A stretch of 64,000 nucleotides of DNA from Planctomycetota bacterium (GTDB lineage Bacteria; Planctomycetota; GCA-002687715; DRQF01), in contig JAWKSY010000002.1 of assembly GCA_041402125.1 (NCBI GenBank), forward strand, positions 304,150 through 368,149, written 5' to 3'. Of this stretch, positions 6,367 through 11,231 are shown in pieces. Every line of letters begins with the position of its first letter. The stretch's first letter is position 1. The notes beneath the pieces were generated by a model. The model saw nothing but the letters and a program-made list of their open reading frames with translations, did not search any database and had not been told where the DNA came from. The position numbers and the translations under genes are program-made.

Positions 6367-8775
6367 ATGACTCATCGAACCGTCTCCGGTCGCGGGAGGA
6401 TCTCCGGCCTCCTCGCCCTCATCTCGCTCTCCAGCGTCATCACGCTGGCCTTCTTCGCCCCGCGCTTCCGCGCCGAGGGCGCCCCGCCGCCGCCTCCGGA
6501 CGGCAGCAGCGCGCCGCCGCGCATCATCGCCTGGAACGATCTGGGCATGCACTGCCTCGATCCCGACTTCTCGGTGTTCAGCATCCTGCCCCCCTACAAC
6601 ACGGTCAACGCTCACGTGATGGTCGGCGGACAGATTCGCGGCGCGGCCGAGGGCTATTCGGTCGAGTACGAGGGGATCGCCGACCCGAACGGCTCGATCA
6701 ACACCACCTCGATCGGCAAGTCGAACTTCTGGGATCACGTGAACGCGCTCTTCGGCGTCACGCTGCCGCTCGACGTCGGACTGGCCGGGCACGCGATGCC
6801 GGGCCTCGCCAACGTCGCGCAGCCGATGACCTACATCCCCGCGCAGGAGTGGTTCCAGGGCGAGGGCATCCCCATGACGCCCATCGACGACGCGGGGCAG
6901 AAGAACCCCTACCCGATGATGAAGATCACGGCGAGGAACGCCTCGGGTCAGGTCGTCGCGTCGACGGTGACGACGGTGCCGAACTCGCAGGAGCTCGACT
7001 GCAAGCGCTGCCACGGTTCGGCCGGGAACCCGGCGGCCATGCCGGCGCAGGGCTGGGTGTTCCATCCGGATCCGCTGAAGGACGACCGCCTGAACATCCT
7101 GGCGCTGCACGATGACCGACAGCTCGGTCAGCCGCAGTACCAGGCGGCGCTCGCCGTCGCCGGCTACAACCCGAACGGTCTCCTCGCGACCGTCCTCGAC
7201 GACGCCACCTCGATCCTCTGCGCGAAGTGCCACGCCTCGAACGCGCTCATCGGCACCGGTCAGCCCGGCATCAGCACGCTCACGACCGCGATCCACGGCC
7301 TGCACGGCGGGGTCAAGGACCTCGACGGCCGCACGCTCGACCAGATCACCGACCGCACCTCCTGCTTCAGCTGCCACCCCGGCTACGACACGCAGTGCCT
7401 GCGCGGCGCGATGGGCAAGGCGATCGGCGACGACGGCAAGAACTCGATGCACTGCCAGAGCTGTCACGGCTCGATGGCCCAGGTGGCCGATCCGGCCCGC
7501 GTGGGCTGGCTCGACCAGCCGACCTGCCAGAACTGCCACGCCGGCACGGCGACGCAGAATCCCGGACAGATCCGCTACACCGACGCCTACGACGCCGGCG
7601 GCAACCTCCGCACGCCGACGGTCGACACCTTCGCGACCGATCCCGACGTGCCCGCGCCCGGCTTCTCGCTGTACCGGTTCTCGACCGGGCACGGCGGGCT
7701 CCAGTGCTCGGCCTGCCACGGACCGCCGCACGCGATCTACCCGACGGCGCTGCCCAACGACAACGCGCAGAGCATGATGCTGCAGGGTCACACGGGCACG
7801 ATCTCCGAGTGCGCGACCTGCCACGGCAATCTCGAGGACGACGAGATGATCGGGCCGCACGGCATGCACCCGGCCACCAACGGTTGGGCCTCGAACAAGC
7901 ACGGCGACGTCGCGCAGAACATGGGCACGGCCTTCTGTCAGACCTGTCACGGCTCGGACAACTCGGGCACCGTGCTCTCGCTGACGAAGGCCGATCGCAG
8001 CTACAACACCGAGTTCGGCACGAAGACGTTCTTCAAGGGCTCGCGGATCGGCTGCTTCGCCTGTCACAACGGCCCGAACAGCGACAACGCGAACTCGAAC
8101 CAGCGTCCGAACGTCACGAGCTTCGCGGTGGCGACGCCCAACGACCAGCCGCTCGCGATCCCGCTCTCGGGGACCGACCCGAACGGCGACCCCGTCACGC
8201 TGCGCATCGTCGACCAGCCGGACTTCTTCCACGGCACCGTCGCATTCGACGGCAGCGTGGCGACCTTCCTGCCGCGCGACGACTTCGTCGGGACCGCCCA
8301 GTTCAGCTACGCGGCCTGGGACGGCGAGATCGACTCCACGCTCGGCGTCGTCACCGTCACCGTGGGGCCGCCGGCCTGCGCGGCGACCGTCGAGCCCTAC
8401 GGCTTCGGTTGCGAGGGAAGCGGGGGCTTCGTGCCCCAGATCTCGCTCGACGGCTGCCCCGAGGCCGGCGGGACGATCACGCTGAACCTGACCGGCGGTC
8501 GCGGTTCGGCCGAGGCGTTCATCCTCCTCGGCTCGGCGCGCGCGACGACGCTCCTGCCCGGCGGTTGCGTGATCCGCGTCGGCGCGATCTCGGACCTCTT
8601 CGGGCCCTACGTCCTCTCGCCCGGCGGTTTCGGCGACGGCATGCTCTCGGTCTCGACCACGCTGCCCGCCGTCCTGCCGCCGACCCAGCTCAACGTCCAG
8701 GTCTTCATCTACGACCCGGGCGCCGGAGCGATCGACTGGGCGGCCTCGAATGCCATCGAGGTCTTGATTCCTTGA
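6367..8775 (+). CDS. multiheme c-type cytochrome (9 CXXCH) with C-terminal Ig/cadherin-like domain
   Basis: Start MTHRTVSG with signal/TM LLALISLSSVITLAFFA. Nine CXXCH motifs: CKRCH, CAKCH, CFSCH, CQSCH, CQNCH, CSACH, CATCH, CQTCH, CFACH. C-terminal beta-sandwich-like region. The last 3 codons and the stop are supplied by the inserted islet. Confidence 0.85.
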   Translation: MTHRTVSGRGRISGLLALISLSSVITLAFFAPRFRAEGAPPPPPDGSSAPPRIIAWNDLGMHCLDPDFSVFSILPPYNTVNAHVMVGGQIRGAAEGYSVEYEGIADPNGSINTTSIGKSNFWDHVNALFGVTLPLDVGLAGHAMPGLANVAQPMTYIPAQEWFQGEGIPMTPIDDAGQKNPYPMMKITARNASGQVVASTVTTVPNSQELDCKRCHGSAGNPAAMPAQGWVFHPDPLKDDRLNILALHDDRQLGQPQYQAALAVAGYNPNGLLATVLDDATSILCAKCHASNALIGTGQPGISTLTTAIHGLHGGVKDLDGRTLDQITDRTSCFSCHPGYDTQCLRGAMGKAIGDDGKNSMHCQSCHGSMAQVADPARVGWLDQPTCQNCHAGTATQNPGQIRYTDAYDAGGNLRTPTVDTFATDPDVPAPGFSLYRFSTGHGGLQCSACHGPPHAIYPTALPNDNAQSMMLQGHTGTISECATCHGNLEDDEMIGPHGMHPATNGWASNKHGDVAQNMGTAFCQTCHGSDNSGTVLSLTKADRSYNTEFGTKTFFKGSRIGCFACHNGPNSDNANSNQRPNVTSFAVATPNDQPLAIPLSGTDPNGDPVTLRIVDQPDFFHGTVAFDGSVATFLPRDDFVGTAQFSYAAWDGEIDSTLGVVTVTVGPPACAATVEPYGFGCEGSGGFVPQISLDGCPEAGGTITLNLTGGRGSAEAFILLGSARATTLLPGGCVIRVGAISDLFGPYVLSPGGFGDGMLSVSTTLPAVLPPTQLNVQVFIYDPGAGAIDWAASNAIEVLIP
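8729..8764. repeat. 36-bp direct repeat DR1, left boundary of islet (last codons of the cytochrome gene)
   Basis: cgatcgactgggcggcctcgaatgccatcgaggtct. It matches 9932-9967 with one mismatch (8751 t vs 9954 c). Confidence 0.85.
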
Positions 8776-9931
8776 ATTTTAGGAGCGCATCGTCAAGAGA
8801 ATCGGCAACCCATCGCCGCGCAGGGGAGCTCTTCGTTCACACGGGCGGGTCGTAGGCAGACGGTCTTGTCACACTGCTACCATCACTGCGATGGACGATG
8901 CCCGGAAGCAATGAACGAACAAGATGGGCGCGCTTCATGCGCTTCGTTGCTTGCAACCCGGCAGCATTGCGCAGCGCATCAAACTTGTGTCTGCCGATTG
9001 GGCTGAGAATTCGGATCCTCACGTTACTGAATCTTGCTCTCAGCTCCCGAAGCGGCGGTGCGAGATCCGAGTCGGCACTTACCAACAGAATTTGATCGCA
9101 TCGCCCAGCGTGCGCGTCAGACAGCATCTTGACGGCGAGGTTTACGTCGGTTTCCTTCTCTTCGTGCGTAGTGTAGATCGCTCCACAGGCCTTGCACGTC
9201 TTCTGCCTCCTTGAACTTGCCGAGGACGGTCTTCACCTGAGGAGGCTGTGCCTTGACGAAGTCCCGGTGTCTCTTGAGAGACGTCGGGCGCCAACTTGCG
9301 TAGGCGGTACAGTAGACGACTTCGATTAGCTGGTCATCCGGACCCAGCACCTCGCGGCAAAGCTCAAACAGGTTGACCCAAAGAAGGTGCTTCTCGCCGC
9401 GGTCGTCGATCGCGTGGTAGAGATTGAAGCCATCGACGTAGGCGATTGTGCGAACGGGCGCCGCTATTGGTGCGCCGGTCATTGCCAACTTCCCGCGCAC
9501 AAAAAATGACCGGCAGGCAACCTCAGTGAGATCACCTGCCGGCGCGGCCGGGCGAAGCCCGGCTCGGATGATGATGTAAGACTATCATCGGACAGGGACA
9601 TGCTCAAGGTTCTGACTTCCTTCTGCAAGTTAACCCGGTGCCTGGTTCGATAGATCAACTTGCACCGTCCGCGGTGCTTGAGACACACCGGATGGTCTAC
9701 GCGGTACAAAAAGTACCGGTGCTCGCACCTCCCGTCCAGACTGCAAGATCTCCCGACAGGCGACCGCCAAGACCAGCAAGATCCAGACAGTTGCCCTGCG
9801 TGCGGCGTACGATCAACGGCGTCCTTTCGGGGCGGACGTCGGGGATACTCGGCGAACCGTTAGGGGCTTTGGCTCGACTTCTTGACGTCTTCGCCTCCAA
9901 GCGCCAAGAGCTGCTGGCTGGAGCCGGAAAC
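8765..9931. mobile_element. 1.17-kb low-GC inserted islet (integrated element remnant) carrying a NYN-domain gene
   Basis: GC is about 55% against about 70% for the surrounding DNA. It is flanked by 36-bp direct repeats. It interrupts the 3' end of the cytochrome ORF and supplies the new terminal codons L-I-P-stop. No integrase or transposase lies within it. Confidence 0.55.
8837..9500 (-). CDS. NYN-domain (LabA-like, PIN-related) protein with Zn-ribbon-like insert; split by a 1-nt frameshift (pseudogene or assembly indel)
   Basis: N-terminal fragment 9117-9500 (GTG start) contains IAYVDGFNLYH. In another frame from about 9220 down to 8837 reads ...KTCKACGAIYTTHEEKETDVNLAVKMLSDAHAGRCDQILLVSADSDL.... 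The shift lies in an aagg run near 9150-9165. Confidence 0.6.
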
Positions 9932-9967
9932 CGATCGACTGGGCGGCCTCGAACGCCATCGAGGTCT
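9932..9967. repeat. 36-bp direct repeat DR2, right boundary of islet; original cytochrome 3' end (…AIEVYTP-stop)
   Basis: cgatcgactgggcggcctcgaacgccatcgaggtct, followed by acacgccctga (stop at 9976-9978), in frame with the original cytochrome C-terminus. Confidence 0.85.
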
Positions 9968-10043
9968 ACACGCCCTGAACGCTTCCGGGCGGCGGTGGGG
10001 CATCCCCGCCCGCCGTCGTCCGGCCGCCCGTGCGCGGCGTCAC

Positions 10044-10078
10044 GGGGCGCCCCTCTGAGCGGGTCAGAGGGGCGCTCC
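10044..10078. other. stable hairpin next to DR2 (possible att-associated or regulatory element)
   Basis: ggggcgcccctctgagcgggtcagaggggcgctcc. The stem is 12 bp with a 5-nt loop, and no U-tract follows. Confidence 0.3.
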
Positions 10079-10427
10079 GCGGCGATCTTCCGCCTCCCGG
10101 CCCCCGGCGGGAGGGGGAGGGGACAGGGGTCCGGAAGGGCGTCCCCCGGCCCGAAAGCCGGGGCGGATTTCCCGCTGCCCTATCCTTCCAGGGCCGAAAA
10201 ACGTCTACACTGCCGGCGGACGGAACGTCCGAGCCGGGATCCTGCGGGATCGCGGCTGCGCTGATCGCCGAATCTGGCGATCGAGAAGGAAGGAAGGGCA
10301 ACCCGAGATTCCCTCTCGAGCCCCGGCATCGAGCGCAAACCTGGGGGGCCGGTCGGTCCGGCCTCAGGTTCGCTCCGGTTCCGGTTCGCGGTGCGTCCGC
10401 GGACGGGGCCTTTTGATCGTGAAAGAC

Positions 10428-10886
10428 ATGTCCGAAAAGAAGCTCTACGTAGGCAACATCACCTTCTCCACCACCGAAACCGATCTCGAGAACGCGTTCT
10501 CCGCGCACGGCCAGGTCGTGTCCGCGCGCGTCATCACCGATCGCGAAACCGGCCGCTCGCGCGGCTTCGGCTTCGTCGAGATGTCGACCCCTGAAGAGGC
10601 CCAGGCCGCGGTGGATGCCCTCGACGGCACCGACCTCGGCGGCCGCAACATCCGCGTGAACATCGCCGAGTCCCGCGATCGCGGCGGCGACCGTGGCGGC
10701 CGTGGCGGCGGCTACGGCGGTGGCGGTGGCGGCTACGGCGGCGGCGGTCGCGGCGGTGACCGCGGCGGCTACGGCGGCGGCGGTGGTGGCTACGGCGGCG
10801 GCCGCGGCGGCGATCGCGGCGGTGACCGCGGCGGCTACGGCGGCGGTCGTGGCGGAGACCGGGACCGCGGCGGCGACCGCTGGTGA
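10428..10886 (+). CDS. RRM-type RNA-binding protein with glycine-rich (RGG/YGG) C-terminal tail
   Basis: RNP-2 LYVGNI and RNP-1 RGFGFVEM. C-terminal tail of GGYGGGGRGGDRGG repeats. Long 5' leader. Confidence 0.85.
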   Translation: MSEKKLYVGNITFSTTETDLENAFSAHGQVVSARVITDRETGRSRGFGFVEMSTPEEAQAAVDALDGTDLGGRNIRVNIAESRDRGGDRGGRGGGYGGGGGGYGGGGRGGDRGGYGGGGGGYGGGRGGDRGGDRGGYGGGRGGDRDRGGDRW

Positions 10887-11231
10887 TCCTACCGGTCCTC
10901 CGCGACCACTGAACACGCGCGCCGCCGAGGGATCCTCGGCGGCGCGTCTCGTTTCGGGGCCTCGCGCATCCGCGAGTCGCCCGGCGACGAAGGCCTCGAG
11001 TGCCGACGCACGTCCGTCCTTCGAGCCCCGGAGACCGAACCATGCGGCACCCCGAGAAGGGCGGCGCCGTCCGGCTCCACACCGGGGGCCGGGTCGGATG
11101 CCGTGCGATGATCCGGCGCGACGGCCGGACGGGCCTCACCCTGATCTCCACGATCAACCGCGACGTCCGGGACGGGTCCCGGCTCGGGCGGCTCGACGCT
11201 CTCCTCGCGCCGCTCGCGTCCCCGGGGGGGC

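Follow-up and report, generated by a model that had tools for sequence, protein, structure and literature searches.

Entry of a mobile element into the end of a gene, with a spare gene end brought along by the element, is a familiar process. The integrative and conjugative elements (ICEs) of the ICESt1/ICESt3 family and the cis-mobilizable elements (CIMEs) of Streptococcus thermophilus integrate into the 3' end of fda and are flanked by direct repeats of ~27 bp. In Escherichia coli, e14 and phage 21, which are prophages with an integrase and an excisionase, integrate in icd and carry a substitute 3' end (165 bp). Here we describe a 1,167-bp islet in the 3' end of a nine-heme cytochrome gene, found in a 64-kb stretch (hereafter the window) of a Planctomycetota metagenome-assembled genome (MAG; contig JAWKSY010000002.1). 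Like the CIMEs, it lies in the 3' end of a protein gene, is bordered by short direct repeats (36 bp here) and has no integrase or transfer genes of its own; it differs in being far smaller, with one gene only, in belonging to a Planctomycetota MAG, and in that no related ICE or integrase was seen in the window. As with e14 and phage 21, a diverged copy of the gene end keeps the gene intact, the C-terminus is slightly changed and the native end is displaced, but here only ~48 nt are similar and a recombinase is missing. We read this locus, with about even confidence, as an integrative islet flanked by attachment (att) sites, either CIME-like or the stump of a small island, whose recombinase was lost or acted in trans. 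Taken alone the islet would be a small, decaying example of the familiar process; its single gene, for an NYN nuclease, belongs to a family that recurs in other small repeat-flanked islets across many bacterial phyla.

Positions given here are those within the 64-kb window, whose mean G+C content (GC) is 71.7 %. The 36-bp direct repeat, CGATCGACTGGGCGGCCTCGAAYGCCATCGAGGTCT, occurs on the plus strand at 8729-8764 (left, attL-like) and at 9932-9967 (right, attR-like), as the first-pass annotation of this DNA had reported, and 35 of the 36 bases are identical between the copies. It can be written CGATCGACTGGGCGGCCTCGAA[T/C]GCCATCGAGGTCT, the sole mismatch being T versus C at repeat position 23 (8751/9954). 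A scan of the 64 kb that tolerated up to three mismatches returned exactly these two occurrences (none in 100 shuffles), and the islet has no second copy within the window. The similarity extends at reduced identity to 8776/9979 (48 nt, 88 %), past both stop codons, and possibly for a further 8 nt leftward across a 2-nt indel. Downstream of the 36-nt core the copies agree at 8 of 13 bases, with the stop at the same position and a common CC-TGAA context. The left copy reads on as ...AIEV-TTG ATT CCT TGA (LIP-stop, stop at 8773-8775) and the right copy, in the same frame, as ...AIEV-TAC ACG CCC TGA (YTP-stop, stop at 9976-9978); the early in-frame stop after each copy had also been recognized in the first annotation, and so had the interval of 1,167 bp. 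Direct repeats thus stand at both ends of the islet and one of them is the end of the target gene, an arrangement expected of attL and attR. The islet itself (8765-9931) has a GC of 58.5 %, a little above the 55 % first ascribed to it and still the lowest of any 1.17-kb stretch in the window; its four sub-segments all lie at 54-61 %. The core holds an inverted repeat, CCTCGA-AYGCCA-TCGAGG, with 6-bp arms and a 6-nt spacer that contains the mismatch.

The target gene (6367-8775, plus strand; ORF call and Pfam) encodes an 802-residue cytochrome with Ig-like domain that ends ...AIEVLIP and is identical to the NCBI MAG protein P0001. Pfam finds Cytochrome_C7, MtrC/MtrF II-IV and Big_9 domains, the protein has nine CXXCH motifs, in agreement with the nine hemes first assigned to it, and the GC at third codon positions is 94 %. 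The two copies of the gene end differ clearly in their codons. The left copy uses codons that are rare in the cytochrome gene (AAT 3, TTG 1, ATT 2 and CCT 2, these occurrences counted), whereas those of the right copy are common (AAC 36, TAC 16, ACG 32 and CCC 23); at position 8751 the left copy thus has the rare AAT and the right copy the common AAC. The closest homologue of the cytochrome in a collection of 5.8 billion proteins, P0002 (67 % identity), ends ...ALEV-NTP, and its DNA, gaggtcAATACGCCC (also given as gaggtcaatacgccc), matches the right copy's gaggtcTACACGCCC, with the same ACGCCC. Because of the rare versus common codons and the NTP tail of this orthologue, the right copy is the ancestral gene end, so that 9932-9967 together with 9967-9978 is the displaced native end, and the left tail TTG ATT CCT TGA (8764-8775, plus strand) is a replacement end that arrived with the insert, as had been proposed. 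A GC-rich hairpin on the plus strand (10038-10084), 60 nt past the native stop, with 21-nt arms that are 86 % complementary and no T-run, probably served as the terminator of the cytochrome gene before the insertion.

The insertion changed the last three residues of the cytochrome from YTP to LIP, again as first annotated, and there is no sign that the gene was inactivated. C-termini in this cytochrome family are frequently LIP-like (...ELLIP, ...ELRIP, ...EVFVP), so the spare end carried by the element may have originated as a genuine gene terminus in some other lineage. The ORF of the closest orthologue runs 35 codons beyond the conserved ...EVNTP and through a terminator-like hairpin (L004:8376-8490; L numbers denote loci of our collection), and since it reads past this end, the C-terminus of the family seems to tolerate change. 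This C-terminal domain exists independently too: its 137 residues share 37-39 % identity with two stand-alone proteins of 175-208 amino acids, P0241 and P0242.

These observations can be put together as follows. A circular DNA with a look-alike of the last ~50 nt of the cytochrome gene would have recombined once with the chromosome. The crossover would fall within the 22 identical bases at 8729-8750, to the left of the T at 8751, because the left copy is of the foreign type at 8751 and the right copy is native there. As an outcome, the cytochrome gene would run into the copy supplied by the element (LIP-stop), the element would come next, and the native end (YTP-stop and hairpin) would be moved 1.2 kb downstream. 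The islet as it now stands does not encode the recombinase, which would have acted in trans or disappeared together with other parts of a larger element. Before the insertion the empty site would read ...GGAGCGATCGACTGGGCGGCCTCGAACGCCATCGAGGTCTACACGCCCTGA, and the junction of the circle would read ...GGAGCCGGAAACCGATCGACTGGGCGGCCTCGAATGCCATCGAGGTCTTGATTCCTTGAATTT.

The only gene between the repeats lies on the minus strand (9482-8837). From its start at 9482 the ORF stays in one frame as far as ~9207 (frame 1, 9482-9207) and resumes in a different one that closes with the stop at 8837 (frame 2, 9205-8837), with an orphan base near 9206 at a site that is not a homopolymer. When the frameshift is repaired, the 215-residue protein matches the NYN profile PF01936 with 48 bits (cut-off 24.2) and the PADLOC model of the candidate defence family HEC-09 (Hma-embedded candidate 9) with an E-value of 1.5e-49 over positions 3-202 of 203, i.e., in full length. 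Homologues of 205-235 amino acids can be aligned with it over the entire length, and in this alignment D17, D113, D138 and D140 are invariant. The NYN gene was rightly named as the only recognizable cargo, but it is recognizable only after this one repair; the Zn-ribbon-like insert also ascribed to it turned out to be a single CxxC with a histidine (C97, C100 and H107, all invariant in the alignment) and not a four-Cys ribbon. In the source MAG only a 121-residue fragment is annotated (P0122), and there is no other NYN gene in the window. Unless the assembly is wrong at the frameshift, the gene is, to judge from its reading frames, a pseudogene, and because the ORF is frameshifted, the module is decaying and the islet probably inert here. 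The paper on HEC-09 (Payne et al., bioRxiv 10.1101/2024.01.29.577857) describes a MARF1-like NYN fold with three conserved Asp, nested inside Hma defence systems, and treats MARF1-like NYN proteins as RNases.

Between its promoter region and its start codon, the NYN gene has a leader or small-RNA region (9483-9591, minus strand). From the upstream side this consists of a ATCATCATCC box (9575-9566), a first hairpin, GCCGGGCTTCGCCCGGC (9563-9547), and an intrinsic terminator (9543-9509) followed by TTTTTT, which a terminator scan returned as 16 pairs plus CATTTTTTGT; a ribosome-binding site (RBS) and the ATG at 9482 come next. The same layout stands upstream of most NYN genes, where it comprises TTGACA-17-TAnAnT, a TCATCC box, a 7-bp tetraloop hairpin and a terminator hairpin with a U-run, and where the RBS and ATG follow the terminator by 15-30 nt. 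The window leader agrees with it in having a TCATCC box, a tetraloop hairpin and an intrinsic terminator 15-30 nt before the ATG, all on the same strand. The promoter-like sequence TTGAGC-17 nt-TAGTCT (9579-9607, minus strand), read by eye upstream of the leader, lies under the threshold of a consensus scan and is presumably the NYN promoter, judging by the position of TTGACA-17-TAnAnT in the homologous loci. Further upstream, 306 bp of islet DNA (9626-9931, 60.8 % GC) separate the NYN promoter from the right repeat; this segment has no Pfam match in any frame and no Rfam match, and shares nothing meaningful with the other 160 NYN loci. For these 306 bp and for the 72 bp at 8765-8836, no protein, RNA-family or cross-locus similarity was found.

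A covariance model detected this RNA beside NYN at 84 of 100 loci, and a rebuilt model did so at 49 of 66 more, i.e., in ~133 of 166 loci from many phyla (e.g., L037:5895-5991, L011:163-258, L055:5911-6007). In all alignments the RNA is a single unit of ~65 nt. Helix 1 is 93.8 % paired, with compensatory changes in 7 of 7 pairs in the model-fitted alignment, and its covariation score is 0.484 versus 0.189 in shuffles (0 of 500 reach the observed value) and at most 0.25 with slid partners. As this alignment had been fitted to the structure, these values are biased in the structure's favor; the same helix was returned by RNAalifold on a plain MAFFT alignment. Model R1, whose training set included the window leader, has its sole match in the 64 kb there (28.4 bits). 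With model R2, which is independent of the window, the match to the window leader is weak (11.3 bits, E 0.1) and was missed under default filters over 64 kb; it covers the full length of the model at the expected place and strand and is the best in 3 kb (8000-11000). By its sequence, then, the window leader may be a divergent member of the RNA element rather than a proven one. The leader of the enterobacterial NYN subfamily is likewise a weak model match. Rfam returned nothing in 8000-10800 at E <= 1, nothing at the gathering score in 11 homologous loci and only noise on the best leader, and our literature searches retrieved no description of an NYN-associated RNA element.

In a few loci the RNA lies on the strand opposite NYN. 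There are six such model matches, two of them of the same sequence: L030:5873-5972, L041:5852-5949, L138:1304-1403 and L139:4881-4980 (counted as L138/L139), L154:1422-1522 and L159:1825-1903. In L138 and L041, the two that were read, the promoter-RNA unit adjoins NYN in reversed orientation, as though the small RNA had a gene of its own or lay on a segment that can invert. Because of this inversion, a purely cis-acting attenuator is hard to reconcile with the data. The RNA and its terminator would keep the nuclease tightly repressed or neutralized, as in the layout of type III toxin-antitoxin systems, and a module of this kind would be costly to lose, so that it alone would survive in minimal islets. 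We infer from this comparison that an RNA-controlled nuclease may be the most economical explanation for the survival of NYN alone.

NYN homologues with 35-52 % identity occur in Gemmatimonadota, Myxococcota, Alphaproteobacteria, Planctomycetota, the candidate phyla radiation, Chlamydiae and others, and the GC of the gene is nearly always lower than that of the surrounding DNA. They were found on 151 plasmids, among them pMNOD of Methylobacterium nodulans with an intact module, on 49 viral contigs and in only two GenBank phages; the enterobacterial plasmids include ones of 3.5-4.2 kb. Two of these, ColE1-type plasmids of E. coli and Klebsiella (L165 and L166; 3.5-4.2 kb), have as cargo almost only a 241-residue NYN protein and a divergently oriented helix-turn-helix gene. 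The enterobacterial subfamily occupies no chromosomal place in 5,426 E. coli genomes and was seen on small plasmids only. No neighbor gene recurs in 80 NYN loci, and integrases lie near ~5 of them. Where near-identical NYN genes occur in unrelated genomes (Binatia versus Thermodesulfobacteriota, three genera of Rhodobacteraceae, Piscirickettsiaceae versus Zetaproteobacteria), the shared stretch is only ~700-790 bp and spans from a sigma-70-like promoter to 10-30 nt beyond the NYN stop. A self-contained unit of ~750-790 bp, with promoter, structured RNA and ORF, thus travels alone across phyla. In one locus three ~130-nt repeats with GCCTAAC...GTTAGGC ends, which are attC-like, separate single-ORF cassettes upstream of NYN in an integron-like array (L009:282-421, 1596-1735, 2286-2425), and in another an IntI-like integrase (L021:2402-3409) lies 2.6 kb from NYN, so the module rides several kinds of vehicle. 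Many NYN-bearing metagenome contigs are only 1-2 kb long (L085-L164), as might be seen if assemblies broke at an element that is repeated or polymorphic, though the collection itself may be the reason.

Is the islet in the window a single case? In 163 NYN loci (1.14 Mb) we surveyed direct-repeat pairs that score at least 28 and are spaced 0.65-4.2 kb apart, and 14 of the 40 pairs bracket the NYN gene, in islets where the repeats restore the neighbor gene. At spacings below 1.4 kb, 8 of 22 pairs do so, with ~1 expected (binomial 2.5e-5). The statistic used is the fraction of all repeat pairs that bracket NYN, the comparison of inverted with direct repeats being an inadequate control; around shifted pseudo-genes direct repeats were equally frequent (4/51). 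Overall, ~90 % of the NYN loci have no flanking repeat and about 1 in 10 is a minimal repeat-flanked islet without a recombinase; no integrase is encoded in any of the sister islets examined.

The repeats of these sister islets are host sequence of several kinds. In L142 (53-182 and 1712-1841) the pair that flanks NYN is a 130-nt gene end; the two copies have 19 base differences, yet the amino acid changes in just 5 of 40 codons and both keep the ORF and its stop, so both copies evolved as coding sequence. This pattern is to be expected if an element carried a gene end with a coding history in some other lineage. The repeat in L005 consists of a gene end, a terminator and the start of the next gene, and that in L051 is spacer directly after a stop codon. 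In L144 (4813-4847 and 5608-5642) dnaX is interrupted within its first 35 nt by an NYN unit of 760 bp; the 5' end of dnaX is made good by an exact 35-nt duplication, and the native promoter and RBS remain upstream of the truncated copy. In a Parachlamydiaceae MAG (L042:5616-5659 and 9025-9068), a 44-nt duplication of the 3' half of a tRNA flanks a 3.4-kb islet with NYN, a MerR-like gene and an XRE-like gene as cargo and no integrase. In L039 (5883-5996 and 6677-6790) NYN is inserted between rpmI and infC, on the opposite strand, and is flanked by a 114-nt repeat. This repeat contains a promoter-like sequence and two hairpins at the position of the NYN leader and is not matched by the covariance model; no gene follows its second copy. 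The repeats of L144, L159 and L056 (28-35 nt) are 100 % identical. No convincing target motif shared among the islet repeats was seen by eye.

We searched for a recombinase and for earlier states of the locus. A six-frame Pfam search (E <= 10) of the 450 bp upstream of NYN revealed no integrase or remnant of one, in accordance with the first description of the islet as lacking an integrase. A tblastn search with five query integrases from other loci, which is a weak test, found no integrase in the 64-kb window of the 420-kb contig, and an IS1595 transposase from another locus used as query had no match in the window. Full-length searches with the cytochrome gave no homologue above 67 % identity, and searches with its C-terminal 137 residues gave only the two small proteins mentioned above. 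The exact core 31-mer is absent from metagenome contigs. Metagenome and genome scans for a donor lineage of NYN gave no homologue above 52 % and none adjoining a cytochrome. Three other kinds of element or target were considered and rejected. There is no tRNA gene in the window that could serve as the insertion target. For an integron cassette, no attC (RYYYAAC...GTTRRRY, 57-141 nt) is present in 8700-10000 on either strand; the same search finds the repeats of L009. A diversity-generating retroelement is recognized by a nearby reverse transcriptase and repeats of at least 100 nt that differ at template adenines; here, the only gene between the repeats is NYN, with no reverse transcriptase, and the repeat is 36 nt long with one T/C difference.

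How was the islet inserted? Site-specific recombination is favored by the shortness of the core, by spare ends that have diverged in a coding-compatible way and by the tRNA duplication of L042. The first-pass annotation had taken the islet for a site-specific integrative element, and its attL/attR-like geometry, its foreign DNA and the gene end borne by the element bear this out in part; the integrase would be putative, none having been found in the islet or, by the weak test, in the window. Several further points weigh against our preferred reading. The repeats of the sister islets range from 28 to >200 nt and the islet ends lie at varying distances from the NYN unit, and a dedicated site-specific system fits poorly for these reasons; integrases are absent from the islet and from the window by the searches above, and they are not a recurrent neighbor in the 80 NYN loci. 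The searched collections yielded neither an empty site nor an excised circle, nor a second copy. The inverted repeat of the core is only marginally above chance, as ~5 % of shuffles match it (24-31 of 500), and the repeats of the other islets lack it, so it is not a shared feature. The weak match of the window leader to R2 belongs here as well, as does the result that HEC-09 gave no protection against any phage tried in the one published test (10.1101/2024.01.29.577857). Repeats of such different lengths, ends without a set position and the lack of integrases nearby favor a homology-based or illegitimate route, by which a donor lineage had the NYN module downstream of an orthologous cytochrome gene. 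A circularized fragment would then have entered by a single RecA crossover, or by homology-facilitated illegitimate recombination with the gene end as an anchor, and the other junction, 36-48 nt upstream of the anchor, would have created the duplication. That the LIP tail matches the usual C-terminus of the cytochrome family, that high identity is limited to the 36-nt core and fades on both sides, and that L142 and L005 hold diverged, coding-compatible host gene ends all agree with such an acquisition. On the other hand, an identity of 22-36 bp is very short for a RecA-dependent crossover, an ordinary double crossover with a related donor gives no duplication, no donor lineage was seen among the collections (no orthologue closer than 67 %), and duplication of a tRNA 3' half, as in L042, is a hallmark of integrase-mediated insertion. 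We consider acquisition by homology doubtful, but the most serious of the alternatives.

The NYN protein and its ~65-nt RNA could also form a selfish module that itself causes insertions without an integrase and duplicates 30-200 nt of the target; the nuclease would make the breaks through which the module enters, or would kill cells that lose it, and the neighbor gene would be kept intact. From the comparison of loci we regard this as unlikely. Very improbable, in our estimate, is a variant in which the nuclease, with or without the RNA, drives its own spread like a free-standing homing endonuclease and repair copies the module together with a substitute gene end. Its closest parallel is the mitochondrial atp6 gene of Allomyces, the C-terminus of which was replaced by a mobile element. 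Indeed, no gene other than NYN is shared by all the minimal islets (0.8-1.3 kb) with flanking repeats, the unit moves alone between phyla, and it is embedded even in the first 35 nt of dnaX and, by the HEC-09 paper, in other operons. But NYN domains are known as RNases, those of the MARF1-like type included according to the same paper, the insertion sites have no recognizable common target sequence, 90 % of the loci lack a flanking repeat, and the NYN gene in the window is broken. Template switching or break repair might instead have pasted in foreign DNA and re-copied 36-48 nt of the host gene, with the stop codon owed to selection or luck and the T/C difference to later mutation. The identical 28-35-nt repeats of L144, L159 and L056 and the variable lengths are typical of such events; in the window, however, 8 of 13 bases, the stop position and the CC-TGAA context are still common to both copies beyond the core, and the mismatch at 8751 and the left tail use rare, foreign-type codons. 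Because of these matches and codons, a homologous sequence borne by the element is the better account than a fresh duplication, and we hold template switching to be highly improbable. Finally, a short shared sequence could have led the assembler to join a small, unrelated molecule into the contig, given that the source is a MAG and that many of the sister repeats (33-44 nt) are near common k-mer sizes. Against this, the one-base difference leaves 22 nt as the longest exact overlap, the reading frame is kept at both junctions, L039 and L005, which come from long-read assemblies at chromosome level, show the same architecture, and the small molecule would still bear an attP-like copy of the gene end; an artefact of this kind seems scarcely credible. 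We therefore keep to the att-flanked islet, at the even confidence stated above.

Downstream of the displaced gene end, a gene at 10413-10886 (plus strand) encodes an RNA-binding protein with an RRM domain and a long tail rich in Gly, Arg and Tyr. This tail is encoded by GGC-rich periodic repeats of 9-15 nt (10654-10899).

The databases and literature that we searched describe neither the conserved RNA nor the unit of 750 bp nor the repeated occurrence of repeat-flanked islets without an integrase. They concern a widespread family, since HEC-09 NYN genes occur on plasmids, in integron-like arrays, in defence operons and on the chromosomes of many phyla. The findings make this family experimentally approachable as an RNA-controlled nuclease, an addiction module or an agent of integrase-independent insertion. 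These hypotheses may also account for the absence of phage defence when the NYN gene was cloned alone. Were the selfish NYN-RNA module real, a PIN-like nuclease would be the basis of a novel class of minimal elements, mobile or addictive.

Three described systems come close to the NYN module. PADLOC's HEC-09 is the same protein family, a single NYN gene nested in other gene clusters; the available part of its description (Payne et al., 10.1101/2024.01.29.577857) does not mention the RNA, the 750-bp unit or the repeat-flanked islets, and the copy in the window differs in being a pseudogene. Integron cassettes are likewise single-gene units of ~0.8 kb, and L009 with its attC-like repeats and L021 with its IntI-like integrase resemble them, but neither strand of the window islet has an R''/R' pair, and the islet repeats consist of host coding DNA, not attC. 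In type III toxin-antitoxin systems (ToxIN, CptIN, TenpIN) the RNA is a set of tandem repeats processed by the toxin and the protein is ToxN-like, whereas here the RNA is a single ~65-nt unit, inverted relative to the gene in ~5 loci, and the protein is NYN/PIN-like. They are alike in the order of promoter, structured RNA, terminator and ribonuclease-type gene, and these systems too are small, highly mobile and often plasmid-borne.

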